Positions 12,521-18,595 are shown, counted from the stretch's first letter. The stretch is 64,000 bases of DNA from Elusimicrobia bacterium GWA2_51_34 (GCA_001799565.1 MGTS01000021.1:192785-256784), one strand, 5' to 3'. The notes: generated by a model not told the origin, from the letters alone. A program made the numbers and translations.

Positions 12521-12619
12521 GTTATTGATACATATTACAAAACTTGGCATAAAGAAAAAAACGACTTCGGATGCGTCATCATGTTGAATACAAGTGTTTT
12601 ATGGTTTCAATCAGCGCGC

Positions 12620-12647
12620 GGGGAATTAAGTATTATGTCACCGGATT
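12620..12647. repeat. Island module, element A copy 1 (GGGGAATTAAGTATTATGTCACCGGATT)
   Basis: Lies immediately 3' of the Fe-S gene stop. It matches copies at 14584-14611 and 16313-16344 over AAGTATTATGTCACCG. Confidence 0.8.
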
Positions 12648-13635: not shown

Positions 13636-13669
13636 ATCATCATTTTGTTGACCTCAACAAAATGATGAT
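13636..13669. promoter_or_regulatory. Perfect 16+2+16 palindrome ATCATCATTTTGTTGA-cc-TCAACAAAATGATGAT, a candidate operator
   Basis: The arms are exact reverse complements. It lies about 100 bp upstream of the Fe-S gene start, and no T-tract follows on either side, so it is not a classic terminator. Confidence 0.5.
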
Positions 13670-13939: not shown

Positions 13940-14479
13940 TTACACCGGGCGGAACCCGATTTGCTTTTTAATACCAGATTGTTTGTCGTTTTCCGGCTGG
14001 TGCAGCCCGTTCATAAGCTGGCGTATTACATTAACGATAGCTTTTATTTCCGTGTCATGTCCGGCCAGTCTGCGTTCCAGTTTCATAAGCTTAACGGCAA
14101 GTTCTTTGTGGGCAGAGACCATTTCCCTCAATCGCACAAAGGCACGCACTACGGAGATACTGGCCTGTATTGCAGCTTCTGAGTTTACGGCGTTTGCCGC
14201 CTGTATGGCGCCGTATTCCGTAAAGGCGTATGGCAAATAGCGCCGGCCGCCCCGTCCTTTTGAGGTCGCAAAATGCGACCTCAAAGATTTGGCCTCAGCC
14301 AGCGTCAATTGAAATCTGAAATCCGCAGGGAATCGTTTGATATTGCGTTGTATCTGCTCATTCAACCGTTTCGTGGTTGTGCCGTATATCTCCGCCAATG
14401 AGAAGTCGAGTATTACTCTATGTCCCCGTACAAGAAATATTTTTGACTCAATCAATTCACGCGGAACAATTTCTTTTGA
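13940..14479 (-). CDS. ORF6N-domain (KilA-N-related) DNA-binding protein
   Basis: 179 aa from ATG at 14479 (MSKEIVPRELIESKIFLVRGHRVILDFSLAEIYGTTTKRLNEQIQRNIKRFPADFRFQLT...GGRRYLPYAFTEYGAIQAA) with a coiled-coil C-terminus. The longer ORF-track start lies inside the promoter module. Confidence 0.85.
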   Translation of the reverse strand, partial: SKEIVPRELIESKIFLVRGHRVILDFSLAEIYGTTTKRLNEQIQRNIKRFPADFRFQLTLAEAKSLRSHFATSKGRGGRRYLPYAFTEYGAIQAANAVNSEAAIQASISVVRAFVRLREMVSAHKELAVKLMKLERRLAGHDTEIKAIVNVIRQLMNGLHQPENDKQSGIKKQIGFRPV

Positions 14480-14542
14480 CATAATCCCCCCTTGTATTAC
14501 AAATAGCATAGCAGACCGACACGACACCCTCTTGTCGCGTTG
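14480..14542 (-). promoter_or_regulatory. Island module, element P copy 1: palindromic operator plus extended -10 plus RBS upstream of the ORF6N gene
   Basis: Gene-sense read is CAACGCGACAAGAGGGTGTCGTGTCGGTCTGCTATGCTATTTGTAATACAAGGGGGGATTATG. It contains inverted repeat CGACA/TGTCG and a TGcTATGCT -10. It aligns with 16541-16602 and 18372-18431. Confidence 0.6.
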
Positions 14543-14556
14543 ATTGAGAGAATTTT

Positions 14557-14611
14557 CGGGGGTTTTAAAACAACCCAAGGAGAGGAACTAAGTATTATGT
14601 CACCGGATTCC
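14557..14611. repeat. Island module, GTTTTAAAAC core plus element A copy 2
   Basis: The sequence cgggggttttaaaacaacccaaggagaggaactaagtattatgtcaccggattcc is 47/55 identical to 16288-16342. It starts 6 nt after the SDR stop. Confidence 0.85.
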
Positions 14612-14616
14612 GTATA

Positions 14617-16182
14617 CTACCAATCCGTCGGCTGATAATCCTTCAAAAATTTACCCCAGACATGTACGCCGGTATTGAAGCCGGAGATAATGGGGTCCAC
14701 AATGCGCGCCGCCCCGTCCACAATGTCCAGCGGCGGATGAAAGCGGTGCTCCTTTATTTTGCGCGCGGCTATCTGCGCCGGGTCCTCGTCCGTTACCCAG
14801 CCCGTATCCACGGAGTTCATGTGAATGCCGCCTGCCTGATAGTCCGCCGCTGAAGTGCGCGTCATCATATTAAGCGCGGCCTTGGCCATGTTCGTGTGCG
14901 GATGCCGCGTGGTTTTGAACTTCCTGTAAAATTGCCCCTCCACCGCCGATACGTTTACTATGTGCTTGTCGCGTTCCGGCGCGCGGAGCATAAGGGGTTT
15001 AAGCCGCGCGTTCAGGATGAACGGCGCTACGGCATTAACCAGCTGCACTTCAAGCAATTCCACCGCCGGCACTTCCGCCATAAGCAGCCGCCACGAATTG
15101 CGCTCGCGCAGGTCCACCTGCTGCAGATCCTGGTCAAGCCTGCCTTCGGGAAACAAATCCTTCTGCGCCGCAAGTTCGTCCGGCAGCAGCGGAACCTGCG
15201 ACAGCGCCGCCGCGTGCGTCAGCCCGGCCATCTGCGAAATGCCCGGCAGCGGCGCGGCGGAAAGCCTTTGCCCGCGGGCCGCCGCTCCTTCAGGTAAAAT
15301 GTGGTAGCCGCGCAAGCCCTCGTAAGCTCCCAGCAATTTGCGTGCGCTCTCCGGCATATCGCGCAGCGGCCCCTGCTCGCCTTCCATCATGTGCCCGTAA
15401 TATTCCGGCGGGCGCCGCACGGTCTGACACGCGTTGTTTATTATAAAATCCAGCCGCGTGCGCGTTGCAAGCAGGTGCCCGCAGAACGCTTCCACGCTCG
15501 GCGTATGGCGCAGGTCCAGCCCGAAAATTTCCAGCCTGTTCCCCCATTCCTTAAAATCAGGTTCGGCCGCGTAACGCCGGGCCGAGTCGCGCGGAAACCG
15601 CGTGCTGACAATAAGCTGCGCTCCCGCGCGCAGCAGCTTGATGCCCGCCTGATAACCTATCTTTACGCGCCCGCCGGTGAGCAGCGCCACGCGCCCGCGC
15701 AAATCCGCCGTCTCCGTGCGTTTGCGGAAATTCAGCTCCGCGCACGGCAGGCAAAGCTGGTCGTAGAAATGATGCAGTTGCGTGTAATTCTGTTTGCAGA
15801 TGTAGCAGTTCTGCTCCTCGTGCGCCGAACCAGGTTCCGGCTTGTCCGCTAATTCCAGCTGCTTGAAGCCGGAAGGCGGCTGCGCGTTGGGCGTGGTAAA
15901 AACGGACTGCCGGCGCAATTTGCGGATGCCGGTCCGGTTCAGCACGCTCTCGGCGCGTTCGGATTTGTCGGCCTTACGCTGGCGCACATACGCCTTAACC
16001 AACTGCCGCCGGGCACGGGCGTCGGGGCGGGAAATCTGGCCGGCGGCCGACAGCAACCGGGTGCATTCATCCTTGGAAACGCCGATGAGCAACCCGCGGT
16101 TGCCGGCGATAGCTTCCAGTAATTCAGCGGCGGCCTGCACCCGCTCCGCCAAAGTGGACTGTTTCAATTTATCGGTAGTCAT
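14617..16182 (-). CDS. Short-chain dehydrogenase/reductase-like protein with a long N-terminal extension and a CxxC...CxxC zinc-ribbon-like motif
   Basis: 521 aa. The N-terminal ~170 aa has no fold I recognise and includes [27 protein letters not shown]. Then come the Rossmann motif [18 protein letters not shown], and MAKAALN in the position of the SDR YxxxK motif. The gene is visibly GC-richer than its neighbours. Confidence 0.7.
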
Positions 16183-16219
16183 CTAAATAATTTGCGAAAA
16201 GCGCGCTTCACTGTCATCT

Positions 16220-16272
16220 ATTATAACTATAAACCACCCCTATCAGGCCATGGCCCCCAGGGCCGTGCCATG
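16220..16272 (-). promoter_or_regulatory. Possible SDR promoter: TATAAT (16225-16220, gene sense) preceded by palindrome CATGGC-N13-GCCATG
   Basis: Gene-sense read is gcATGGCacggccctgggggCCATggcctgataggggtggtttatagtTATAATagatgac. It occupies the position taken by element P in the other modules. Confidence 0.3.
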
Positions 16273-16287
16273 CGAATTTACACAATT

Positions 16288-16344
16288 GCGGGGTTTTAAA
16301 ACAGCCCAAAGCGGGGAATTAAGTATTATGTCACCGAATTCCCC
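16288..16344. repeat. Island module, GTTTTAAAAC core plus element A copy 3
   Basis: The sequence is gcggggttttaaaacagcccaaagcGGGGAATTaagtattatgtcaccgAATTCCCC. Element A here forms a perfect 8-bp stem with a 16-nt loop and overlaps the 3' end of the 69-aa ORF. Confidence 0.85.
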
Positions 16345-16540
16345 GTTTCCTTTTGTGTCGATATATTATTTGGGCGGCCAACTCCGGGCTGCAGAGTATG
16401 CCGGTAAATGCGGACTCTCTTCGCGGACCGTTGGGAAACATTTTTGTCCTGACAGATGCCAGCCTTCCGCTGTCATTTCCGCCAGTCACTTCCGCCTTAT
16501 AGTTACGGGTTGAGTACCTGGAAATACTTATTTCACACAT
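16331..16540 (-). CDS. Hypothetical 69-aa protein (coding status uncertain)
   Basis: Starts with ATG at 16540, 4 nt after AGGAGG and directly downstream of element P copy 2. I recognise no similarity, and it could instead be a transcribed leader. Confidence 0.3.
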   Translation of the reverse strand: MCEISISRYSTRNYKAEVTGGNDSGRLASVRTKMFPNGPRRESAFTGILCSPELAAQIIYRHKRKRGIR

Positions 16541-16602
16541 AGCGCCTCCTTTTGATAGCAAAATAGTATAGCAGGCCACCACGACAACGTATTGTCGCGT
16601 TG
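16541..16602 (-). promoter_or_regulatory. Island module, element P copy 2
   Basis: Gene-sense read is CAACGCGACAATACGTTGTCGTGGTGGCCTGCTATACTATTTTGCTATCAAAAGGAGGCGCTATG. The 40-nt core at 16563-16602 is 35/40 identical to 18392-18431. Confidence 0.6.
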
Positions 16603-16751
16603 TTTTTGTGAATGATCCCAATGGTCCCTGTGGTTTCAATCCGCTTTGACGGGGAAAGCATAAAGGAATTAGTTCCGGCCTTATACATAAAGGAGTCGAA
16701 TTCGACCCCTTTAAAACTCGGGGATGATAATATTTTAGCTCCAGCCAATTT

Positions 16752-16776
16752 CTCGCACCAACGGTGCGAGTTTTTC
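16752..16776 (+). terminator. Orphan intrinsic terminator on the + strand
   Basis: ctcgcacc-aac-ggtgcgag followed by TTTTT. It sits in a 350-bp gene-free gap where all annotated genes are on the - strand. Confidence 0.5.
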
Positions 16777-16992
16777 ATTCTGCGAGTAAATCTCATAAAA
16801 AATCCGCATCCGCCACAGGGGAAAAGGCTCCTGCTGCCTTTTGCAAACTTGAGGTAACAAATTGTGACCTCAAGTTACGCGCAGGGTGCCGATATAAAAT
16901 CAGGGTTGAAGATCCGTGGGCTGGCGTGCAATAGCCGTCCCGTCCCGGCGGCGGGTTCTGCCACCGCCGGACCCGTGTTTAATTAAGACTGG

Positions 16993-17301
16993 TCACTCTT
17001 CGTCCGGCTCCACCCAGTCTATGACCGTGCCGCCGCTGTTCGGATAATACGGGCTTACAAGCCAGTCCATATCGTCGCCTCGCAGAACACGGAAATCCCC
17101 CGCCTTGAACTGCTTATCCTCGTGGATATCCAGCAGCACGGCGTCAAGGGAAGGGACCGGCACAAAAGGATAAAGTTTTTTCAGCACTTCCTCCTTTTTA
17201 TCCGCCGGTATAATATACTCGTCCACATAGCCGCCTTCCACCTTAAGAAGCCGGGTGGGAAACGGCAGCGGCAGGTCCCCAGGCTTATCCATAGTTTTCA
17301 T
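16993..17301 (-). CDS. Hypothetical 102-aa acidic protein, translationally coupled to the DUF1016 nuclease gene
   Basis: Its start ATG overlaps the upstream TGA (ATGA at 17298-17301). I recognise no domain. Confidence 0.6.
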   Translation of the reverse strand: MKTMDKPGDLPLPFPTRLLKVEGGYVDEYIIPADKKEEVLKKLYPFVPVPSLDAVLLDIHEDKQFKAGDFRVLRGDDMDWLVSPYYPNSGGTVIDWVEPDEE

Positions 17302-18371
17302 TTTTCCTCCTTATTTTCCATCTGCTCACCAACAAACAGCCGCTCACGGGCATGCGCTATGGCCCGGCGCAGGCGGGTCTCAAGCGCGGCACGCGGCGGA
17401 AGCTCCGTTAAATACTCCGCGACCCTGATTCCGCTCTTGTCCAGCTCCAACAGTTCCACCTGCTCTTCGGATTTGCCGGCACATAATATAAGCCCGATAG
17501 GAGCCTCCTCGTGCGGCTGGCGCTCGTGCTTATTCAGCCAGCGCAGGTAAAGCTCCATCTGCCCCTTAAATTCCGGCTTAAACTTCTCAAGCTTTAGTTC
17601 TATGGCCACCAGCCGCCGCAGTTTCCGGTGGAAGAACAGCAAATCCAGGTAAAAATCGTCCGGGCCGACCTGCATCCTTTTCTGCCGCGCGACAAAAGTA
17701 AAGCCGGCGCCAAGTTCAAGGATAAAAGCCTCCATCTCCCTTAATATGGCGGATTCAAGGTCTTTTTCCTGATAAGCGCCCTTCAAACCCAAAAAATCAA
17801 GAAAATATGGGTCACGGAAAACCAGGTCAGGGCTGAGCGTATCTTCTTCTTTCAATTTCCGCAACTCAAGTTCGGCTAGTTTGGCCGGCTTCCTGGACAA
17901 AGCCGTACGCTCAAAAAGCATACCGCCGATCTTTCGCTCCATGGTGCGGGTATTCCAATTTTCTATGCGGCACATCTCAGCGTAAAAAGCCCGCTTTAAA
18001 GGGTCTTTAATATAAATCAGGATTTTAAAATGGGTCCAGCTCAATTGTCTCCGCAGCGCGGAGACAATCTTTTCATCACGGAACACTTCAAAAAACCGTA
18101 TCATGTGCCGCAGATTCTTTTCAGACACACCTTCGCCGTACTCCGGCGTGAGAGTTGCAGACAATGTCCTGACGATAGCTTCGCCATACCCCGCCCTGCG
18201 GCTACCTAAAATCTCCAGGCTGATCCTGCGTCCTATTGCCCAATACATTGCCGCTATGCCGGAAGTAACCGCACTCGCAACCCCGACACGCGCCTGTGTA
18301 ATAAGCAAGCGAACATCGGCCAGCAGCCGTGGCGGACACTCCCCGGCATGCTCAATTTCTTTTTTTGACAT
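17298..18371 (-). CDS. YhcG/DUF1016-family PD-(D/E)XK nuclease-domain protein
   Basis: 357 aa. The N-terminal DUF1016 helical region has LSWTHFKILIYIKDPLKRAFY. The C-terminal nuclease core is FYLDLLFFHRKLRRLVAIELKLEKFKPEFKGQMELYLRWL. AAGGAGGGG RBS lies upstream. Confidence 0.85.
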   Translation of the reverse strand: MSKKEIEHAGECPPRLLADVRLLITQARVGVASAVTSGIAAMYWAIGRRISLEILGSRRAGYGEAIVRTLSATLTPEYGEGVSEKNLRHMIRFFEVFRDEKIVSALRRQLSWTHFKILIYIKDPLKRAFYAEMCRIENWNTRTMERKIGGMLFERTALSRKPAKLAELELRKLKEEDTLSPDLVFRDPYFLDFLGLKGAYQEKDLESAILREMEAFILELGAGFTFVARQKRMQVGPDDFYLDLLFFHRKLRRLVAIELKLEKFKPEFKGQMELYLRWLNKHERQPHEEAPIGLILCAGKSEEQVELLELDKSGIRVAEYLTELPPRAALETRLRRAIAHARERLFVGEQMENKEEK

Positions 18372-18431
18372 AACCCCTCCTTACCGCGTACATAGCATAG
18401 CAGGCTAACGCGACAACGTATTGTCGCGGTG
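18372..18431 (-). promoter_or_regulatory. Island module, element P copy 3 with perfect palindrome CGCGACAA-tacg-TTGTCGCG
   Basis: Gene-sense read is CACCGCGACAATACGTTGTCGCGTTAGCCTGCTATGCTATGTACGCGGTAAGGAGGGGTTATG. Confidence 0.65.
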
Positions 18432-18537
18432 TTTTTAAAATATTTTTCACAGCTGTCCGGGGAAAGTTTTAAACTGGGGTGGGGTGTAAACCGAGTCGGA
18501 CCTTAGAATAGGCCAAATCTCCTAAGATGGAGGTTAA

Positions 18538-18582
18538 GGTGACACACAACTTAATTCCCGTTCAATTAAGTTGTGTGTCACC
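18538..18582. repeat. Perfect 19-bp-stem hairpin whose right arm is element A copy 4
   Basis: GGTGACACACAACTTAATT-cccgttc-AATTAAGTTGTGTGTCACC. It lies 14 nt 3' of the ABC-F stop with no U-tract. The right arm matches the other A copies (AATTAAGT...TGTCACCG). Confidence 0.8.
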
Positions 18583-18595
18583 GTAATTATGCGCT

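Follow-up and report, generated by a model that had tools for sequence, protein, structure and literature searches.

A palindromic promoter module recurring throughout Elusimicrobia and its predicted recognition by a DriD/PafBC-like WYL regulator

WYL-dependent promoters and the module repeated in the window

The element studied here is a palindromic promoter module present in three copies in a 64,000-nucleotide stretch of Elusimicrobia bacterium GWA2_51_34 (MGTS01000021.1:192785-256784; the whole of this stretch, with a G+C content of 51%, is referred to as the window), and its closest described counterparts are promoters controlled by transcription factors of the HTH-WYL-WCX type. The PafBC motif of mycobacteria, derived from chromatin immunoprecipitation (ChIP), reads tGTCgg(N10)tA(N3)T and forms a -26 element in promoters without a -35 element, at which PafBC inserts between the DNA and region 4 of the sigma factor (PMC8635444). 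DriD, the homodimeric WYL activator of an SOS-independent DNA damage response in Caulobacter crescentus, has the box ATACGAC(N7)GTCGTAT, which covers the -35 position and keeps a fixed distance to the -10 element, again in promoters lacking a -35 element; the pattern CGxC-N7-GxCG is found in the own promoter of 68 of the 69 DriD homologues (PMC10853764, PMC13004042). The third member of this family, SiwR from Mycobacterium smegmatis, is likewise a homodimeric WYL activator, acting from an imperfect palindrome positioned between -10 and -35, with the -26 region being needed (PMC10693628).

The three copies of the module in the window are the following:
14501..14553, minus strand: copy 1, promoter of the ORF6N gene; palindrome CGCGACAAGAGGGTGTCGTG at 14539..14520, TG at 14513..14512, -10 hexamer TATGCT at 14510..14505
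16561..16613, minus strand: copy 2, located 5' of a doubtful 69-aa open reading frame (ORF); palindrome CGCGACAATACGTTGTCGTG at 16599..16580, TG at 16573..16572, -10 hexamer TATACT at 16570..16565
18390..18442, minus strand: copy 3, promoter of the DUF1016 gene and a 102-aa ORF; perfect palindrome CGCGACAATACGTTGTCGCG at 18428..18409, TG at 18402..18401, -10 hexamer TATGCT at 18399..18394

The initial annotation of the window had described one palindromic operator with an extended -10 element preceding three unrelated genes. The gap-free alignment of its 40-nt cores (14503-14542, 16563-16602 and 18392-18431) was confirmed, the pairwise identities being 33/40, 32/40 and, for copies 2 and 3, 35/40, and the repeat search widened the cores to the single 53-nt family listed above. 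Read in the sense of the genes—all those near the three copies being encoded on the minus strand—the module consists of an A-rich stretch, the 20-bp palindrome, five bases, the sequence cTGCTAT(G/A)CTAT, a G-rich Shine-Dalgarno sequence and the ATG. The TG of each copy lies at -15/-14 and the TATRCT hexamer is separated from the ATG by 22-24 nt in all three cases. The description as one cis-regulatory module shared by unrelated genes, combining the dyad, a well-placed TGn extended -10, the Shine-Dalgarno sequence and the ATG, was thus borne out, while the spelling of the palindrome with TTGTCG proposed earlier applies to copies 2 and 3 only, copy 1, which has the most degenerate box, reading GTGTCG.

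Searches of the window with parts of the motif gave three matches to ATAGYATAGCAG allowing at most one mismatch (0.34 expected), three to CGAC-N8-GTCG (0.45 expected) and three to TGTCG-N11-TAnnnT (0.77 expected); a fourth copy, sought in the 64 kb with several parts of the motif, was not found. The hexamer that would serve as the -35 element, 17 nt upstream of the -10, falls within the dyad and reads AATACG or AAGAGG, matching TTGACA by reading in 2/6 positions. The sigma-70 scan did not call the module promoters of the window, and the Rfam scan of the window revealed two tRNAs only and nothing at the repeats. When viewed on the plus strand, copies 2 and 3 (16582-16597 and 18409-18428) resemble intrinsic terminators, i.e. 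a hairpin followed by GTGTTTTT or CGTTGTTTTT. Such a function of the palindromes was rejected, since no plus-strand gene ends at the hairpins and a U-run is absent in the sense of the genes; terminator-like sites in the region are, moreover, fewer than the mean of the shuffled sequences.

Concerning the comparison with PafBC, the pattern TGTCG[CT]-N10-TAT[GA]CT is present in 3/3 copies of the window, so that the spacing is identical to that of the PafBC promoters, and both types do without a -35 element. PafBC, whose actinobacterial promoters are termed RecA-NDp and involve sigma adaptation, differs in being a heterodimer with a non-palindromic site that binds DNA only together with RNA polymerase, whereas the module here contains a full palindrome and therefore implies a homodimer. 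With DriD, the module shares the CGAC...GTCG dyad as well as the position of the box over the -35 region at a fixed distance to the -10 element, with no -35 hexamer. In the promoter sequences given in the Methods of PMC13004042, an A-N3-T hexamer appears to lie 11 nt past the proximal G(T/G)CG, this being our own reading and not that of the authors. The flanks are, however, different (ATA in DriD as opposed to CC, CG or TG here), and a TGn extended -10 is present here. SiwR resembles the expected regulator as a homodimeric WYL activator acting on a palindrome near the -26 region, but it serves one adjacent dinB-like operon and uses the triplet GGA, in contrast to the dispersed regulon and the GTCG core described below.

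Distribution and geometry of the module across Elusimicrobia

The further copies, the counting of which had been proposed along with the initial annotation, were searched for in GTDB, with one genome per species, using the strict pattern CGACAA-N5-TGTCG-N8-TGCTATRCT. The search yielded 59 sites, about 57 of them in metagenome-assembled genomes (MAGs) of Elusimicrobia from groundwater, lakes, rumen and gut, versus about 2 by chance, the latter figure being an estimate from the information content of the pattern and the size of the collection. The strict sites number one to a few in each genome, and the positions left free by the pattern are conserved, too, the consensus being aaCCCGACAAGCCCTTGTCGGGTTsssCTGCTATGCTATTT. 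The three repeats of the window are true copies of this promoter module, which is distributed across the whole phylum.

In order to be free of the selection imposed by the strict pattern, the bare dyad CGAC-N8-GTCG was scanned in the fetched loci. In the 712 kb covered, the gap N8 between the half-sites occurs at 125 sites, versus 1-12 for each other gap from N4 to N12 and a uniform expectation of about 11; even the loci picked by their WYL protein only (see below) contain 35 distinct dyads in 227 kb versus about 3.5 expected. A TAnnnT hexamer is present exactly 11 nt past GTCG on 42 of the 70 sides of dyads in these protein-selected loci, and on 21 of the 48 sides of 24 non-strict dyads in the motif-selected ones; other offsets of TAnnnT account for no more than 5 each, except for N13 (14 cases) in the protein-selected set. 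The extended -10 reported for the window proved to be real, with T(-15) in 37/44 and G(-14) in 31/44 protein-selected sites, although some sites do without it. The general form of the module may thus be written as CGAC-N8-GTCG-N11-TAnnnT, usually with the TGn extension and without a -35 element.

As far as the genomic position is concerned, an ORF of at least 60 aa begins within 100 nt of 124 of the 134 directional sites, the median distance from the -10 hexamer to the start codon being 22 nt. A scatter of the motif over places unrelated to gene starts, which the initial annotation had named as an outcome that would argue against its proposal, was not observed. Many single palindromes are flanked on either side by a -10 hexamer at N11 and act for two divergent genes (L019, L022, L026, L028, L013/L064 and others). 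These include pairs formed by the WYL regulator with a 146-aa or a PAD_porph gene, and by a Y-family polymerase with a probable ORF6N gene (L064), the latter identified from its first 12 residues only.

The proteins encoded downstream of the box were clustered and annotated with Pfam and PADLOC. The box is present in dozens of species of Elusimicrobia, and the genes behind it belong to over 40 families unrelated to one another. Genes of DNA metabolism are represented by the Y-family polymerase (L013, L064), SSB (3 loci), ComM, DUF2779 (3 loci) and a two-AAA ATPase (8 loci). Among the accessory genes, there are DUF1016 (4 loci), ORF6N, KilA-N, RhuM-Fic, Fic, BrnT (3 loci), Gp49/HigB-like toxins (3 loci), DUF559, PDDEXK_9, Schlafen/AlbA_2, DUF3800 and two kinds of DNA methyltransferase. 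IS200-like Y1 transposases, likewise counted with the accessory genes, follow the box in 3 loci (L023, L054, L058), with a single site each.

The presence of these three transposase genes, together with the terminator-like appearance of copies 2 and 3 on the plus strand, the KilA-N gene remnant ending at the upstream border of copy 2, and the very occurrence of near-identical modules before unrelated genes, could be taken to mean that the palindrome is non-regulatory, being instead a terminator hairpin, a site of recombination by which the gene cassettes move, or a REP-like element that Y1 transposases mobilize. This is, however, very unlikely with regard to the distribution described above: there are few sites per genome and not hundreds, they are placed 5' of genes in one orientation, at a fixed distance to both the -10 hexamer and the start codon, no plus-strand gene ends at the hairpins, and in the sense of the genes the hairpins have no U-run behind them. 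Moreover, no pairs of boxes flank the Y1 genes, and the motif search of the IMG/VR viral contigs gave zero matches. The REP/RAYT element, which is typically found in many copies per genome, mainly 3' of genes and as inverted pairs around the Y1 transposase gene, was rejected in particular because of the copy number, the 5' position and the lack of flanking pairs.

The WYL regulator linked to the box and the proposed mode of control

A gene for a 306-aa HTH_11-WYL-WCX protein is located behind the box in 11 motif loci. When homologues of this regulator were fetched from metagenomes by protein similarity alone, the box (CGAC-N8-GTCG, at most one mismatch) was found within 70 nt of the start in 16 of the 24 homologues with enough upstream sequence, the chance rate being estimated at about 0.002 per locus. 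Most of these own-promoter boxes, observed in homologues down to 38% identity, have a -10-like hexamer at N11, and in two further homologues a small ORF is inserted between the box and the gene. Outside the Elusimicrobia, a MAG assigned to Desulfobacterales (L038; JAUYIZ010000310.1) harbours three boxes within 2 kb (at 108, 1863 and 1987) along with DUF2779 and a WYL gene, the product of which is 37% identical to the Elusimicrobia family; either the box system is also present outside the phylum, or this contig has been misbinned.

The initial annotation had put forward the ORF6N protein encoded beside copy 1 as a candidate for a repressor controlling the three window genes. ORF6N is a predicted DNA-binding domain of the KilA-N/ORF6N class, and this protein is the only predicted DNA-binding protein of the segment; its candidacy has, nevertheless, to be seen as most improbable. 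Numerous species and loci have the box but no ORF6N gene in its vicinity, ORF6N is just one of the more than 40 cargo families, preceded in the window by the most degenerate of the three boxes, and it matches a single-gene defence candidate, whereas it is the genes of the DriD-related HTH-WYL-WCX proteins that the box tracks.

A second WYL family, with members of 314-328 aa that are 70-86% conserved among groundwater Elusimicrobia, adjoins tuf and tRNA genes. It is homologous over its full length to the 306-aa family, which may be called the gut-type one (hhalign E 8e-63). In four loci (L018, L097, L099, L100), the box is found three genes downstream of the groundwater-type WYL gene within the same conserved cluster, the order of which (L018, 1030-3686) is the WYL regulator, a 340-aa protein, DUF350, the box and small ORFs.

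With regard to the relationships of the two families, their profiles compared with PDB returned only DriD (E 3e-8 and 1e-8), which is the best PDB match, and PafC/PafBC. BrxR and CapW were absent from the matches, the E-value limit of the search being <= 1 (gut family) and <= 10 (groundwater family); a profile was needed, since phmmer with a single WYL protein gave no match in PDB. The Foldseek search with the AlphaFold2 (AF2) model of the regulator returned DriD (2e-13) and PafBC (5e-13) ahead of CapW (2e-8) and BrxR (4e-8), the last two being weaker by a factor of about 1e5. Both families contain the invariant recognition helix R-[ST]-x-Q-R-D, which aligns with R37, T38 and R41 of DriD, the residues contacting the bases, R37 reading the guanine of the half-site. 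In those gut-type homologues that have the box in their own (divergent) promoter, the likeness to DriD extends to this feature as well. The protein identity is only 17-20%, and the regulon here consists mostly of accessory and defence-type genes.

The position of the SOS operator relative to the -10 element varies, and its sequence classes differ from the box described here. A LexA-type SOS repressor, or an as yet undescribed factor, acting as a global regulator at the palindrome and making its likeness to the WYL boxes coincidental, has nevertheless to be considered: like the LexA boxes, the palindrome is common to classic damage-inducible genes, such as those for the Y-family polymerase, SSB and ComM, the binding of a WYL protein to the box is a prediction, and the groundwater WYL gene is not itself preceded by a box. 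Such an explanation seems unlikely, since the box is fixed in position whereas the SOS boxes are not, its CGAC...GTCG core corresponds to the DriD half-sites and is matched by a conserved DriD-like recognition helix, and the boxes are strongly enriched in the promoters of WYL genes. No link to LexA was found in this analysis.

Based on the above results, the palindrome is most likely the predicted binding site of a DriD/PafBC-like WYL regulator and not an operator of the ORF6N protein. The module itself would probably represent a WYL-dependent, stress-inducible hybrid promoter, presumably an activated one, with the window genes as co-induced members of a phylum-wide regulon. According to this proposal, a dimeric HTH-WYL-WCX factor of the DriD/PafBC/SiwR family, assumed to be encoded also by the source organism, would bind CGAC-N8-GTCG in such a way that the proximal half-site occupies the -26 position known from PafBC, exactly 11 nt before the TGn-extended -10 (TAnnnT), in place of a -35 element. 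Judging from PafBC and DriD, it is probably single-stranded DNA bound to its WYL domain that would switch the regulator on, e.g. in response to DNA damage and perhaps also to attack by phages. The regulator would thereupon recruit the housekeeping RNA polymerase, or adapt it, to the extended -10 promoters devoid of a -35 element, the transcripts being expected to start about 7 nt after the -10 and to have a 5' leader of about 15 nt.

Of the shared repressor operator put forward in the initial annotation, the dyad-symmetric shared site has been retained, but the repressor role is doubtful, GTCG-N11-TAnnnT without a -35 element being the geometry of the activators PafBC, DriD and SiwR. Repression by a WYL protein may, on the other hand, be imagined: the promoters with their well-conserved extended -10, which could make the -35 element needless, would be active by default, and the dimer of a BrxR/CapW-like regulator, with a box covering the -35 and spacer region, would block RNA polymerase until a nucleic-acid signal arrives. 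WYL repressors are known (PMC13004042), BrxR and CapW of the BREX and CBASS systems controlling defence genes, and the cargo here is partly of the defence type (PDC-S02, PDC-S05, toxins, methyltransferases). It is the conserved TGn and this defence-type cargo that leave room for such a repressor. Still, we regard this alternative as rather doubtful and favour activation because of the fixed N8 and N11 spacings, the single dyads used from two sides and the closer kinship to DriD and PafBC. The N11 distance is kept on both sides of the palindrome across very different -10 and spacer sequences, as required for co-recognition with the polymerase but not for occlusion, and the geometry is identical to that of the PafBC promoters; in sequence as well as in fold, the activators DriD and PafBC are nearer relatives of the regulator than BrxR and CapW, which are, in addition, encoded beside their single target operon.

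Several points weigh against the WYL-dependent, activated promoter preferred here. A TGn extended -10 can work without a -35 element, so the promoters could be active by default and then repressed, and the WYL repressors BrxR and CapW bind promoter palindromes as well. Regulation by a WYL protein at the box is a prediction; the half-site gap of DriD is N7 (or N6) and not N8, and the AF2 model of the regulator is of moderate quality (pLDDT 72, pTM 0.38). The groundwater-type WYL gene (L018, L097-L102) has no box in its own promoter, and much of the regulon is unrelated to DNA repair, which means that something other than DNA damage may act as the signal. Finally, tblastn of the window with both WYL families detected no WYL gene in the 64 kb, and the source organism's own WYL regulator was not found. 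The candidates P0166, P0213 and P0210 for the latter led to other organisms or other samples; P0166 comes from the same Rifle project, but its contigs have 57-61% G+C, versus 51% of the window.

WYL-dependent hybrid promoters as such are already known; the module's own features are the N8 gap, the extended -10, the bidirectional use and the cargo-rich regulon. In the literature searched, no paper ties WYL proteins to Elusimicrobia, DUF1016 or ORF6N. If the proposal is true, the WYL-controlled, SOS-independent stress response, so far known from Actinobacteria and Caulobacter, would extend to a poorly studied and mostly uncultured phylum, for which CGAC-N8-GTCG-N11-TAnnnT would offer a ready definition of the regulon. 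It would also supply a testable expression cue for DUF1016/YhcG, ORF6N, RhuM and DUF2779, which are widespread and found in defence islands with no known trigger. That the proximal half-site has one geometry in three phyla so distant from each other is relevant to the question of how RNA polymerase is engaged by WYL activators.

Window genes, gene remnants and other repeats

The genes near the three modules and the gene remnants of the window are listed below:
13940..14482, minus strand: ORF6N-domain protein of 180 aa, cargo of copy 1 (Pfam ORF6N 6.7e-29; PADLOC PDC-S05 1.6e-46)
16331..16540, minus strand: 69-aa ORF downstream of copy 2, with no Pfam match; its 3' end overlaps repeat R2c
16602..16882, minus strand: remnants of earlier cargo genes upstream of copy 2, in the 390 nt that separate it from the 102-aa ORF, comprising the three items that follow
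16602-16730, minus strand: KilA-N-type fragment (tblastn, 67% identity to the box-controlled L055 protein, E 1.4e-18)
16738-16821, minus strand: DUF1016_N fragment of a second DUF1016 gene (Pfam DUF1016_N, E 1.7e-4)
16847-16882, minus strand: weak ORF6N-like peptide ARNLRSQFVTSS, a remnant
16993..17301, minus strand: 102-aa ORF overlapping the stop codon of the DUF1016 gene by 4 nt
17298..18371, minus strand: DUF1016_N + YhcG_C PD-(D/E)XK nuclease of 357 aa, cargo of copy 3 (Pfam 1.7e-42 and 7.6e-48; PADLOC PDC-S02 5e-125)

Of the three genes originally thought to be served by the module, the ORF6N gene and the DUF1016 nuclease gene were upheld, both annotated genes being PADLOC defence candidates (PDC-S05 and PDC-S02, respectively), and the latter is probably co-transcribed with the 102-aa ORF. 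The 69-aa ORF, an orphan, is doubtful as a real gene; only one other cluster was found for it among 1.84 billion representative proteins. Near-identical contigs with the gene of the ORF6N protein are present in the Rifle and other groundwater metagenomes, and the relatives of this protein belong to Elusimicrobia.

It should be noted that the homology to KilA-N does not extend past the upstream edge of copy 2, the gene being cut within about 10 nt of it. The L004 contig from another sample (JGI 3300025309), 99% identical, carries a 20-bp deletion at ~560-580 (window ~18230) that truncates the DUF1016 protein to 276 aa, which means that this cargo gene has been lost at the population level in the L004 variant. 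Taken together, the remnants and the deletion variant indicate that genes of this class turn over at this spot. The synteny around the SDR gene, inspected for cassette insertion, was uninformative, the relatives at 85% identity having unrelated neighbourhoods.

A more far-reaching and rather speculative possibility is that the box with its extended -10 might be a portable, phylum-wide stress promoter repeatedly acquired by, or travelling with, single-gene defence candidates and toxins, so that one WYL sensor of single-stranded DNA would fire a dispersed defence-and-repair regulon; DUF1016/PDC-S02, ORF6N/PDC-S05, RhuM-Fic, BrnT, the HigB-like toxins and the methyltransferases could tentatively be named as examples. 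Given where the KilA-N gene is cut, the edge of the palindrome might perhaps serve as a recombination junction for swapping the cargo. The arrangement GTCG-N11-TAnnnT, common to Actinobacteria, Alphaproteobacteria, Elusimicrobia and the one Desulfobacterales MAG, might then reflect a single ancient way in which WYL activators engage RNA polymerase.

Apart from the module, the window contains a second repeat family, R2 (GGGGTTTTAAAACAGCCCAAAGCGGGGAATTAAGTATTATGTCACCGAATTCC), at 12618-12647, 14559-14611, 16290-16342 and 18534-18586, each copy being located directly 3' of a minus-strand stop codon, namely those of the genes for an Fe-S protein, the SDR, the 69-aa ORF and an ABC-F protein. The R2 family is confined to the source population, being absent from all other fetched loci. 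Its fourth copy (18534-18586) forms a perfect 23-bp inverted pair with an RNA fold z of -7.4; the interpretation of the family as a structured RNA was rejected, the fold being significant in that copy only. Two similar palindromes of the type TTGAGGT(C/A)...ACCTCAA occur at 14260-14284 within the ORF6N coding sequence (LRSHFATS) and at 16846-16876 within the ORF6N-like remnant (LRSQFVTS); they may be either a chance product of the conserved peptide or a functional site. Finally, a perfect 16-bp inverted repeat, ATCATCATTTTGTTGA cc TCAACAAAATGATGAT, is present at 13636-13669, in the 400-nt gap between the genes for the ORF6N and Fe-S proteins.

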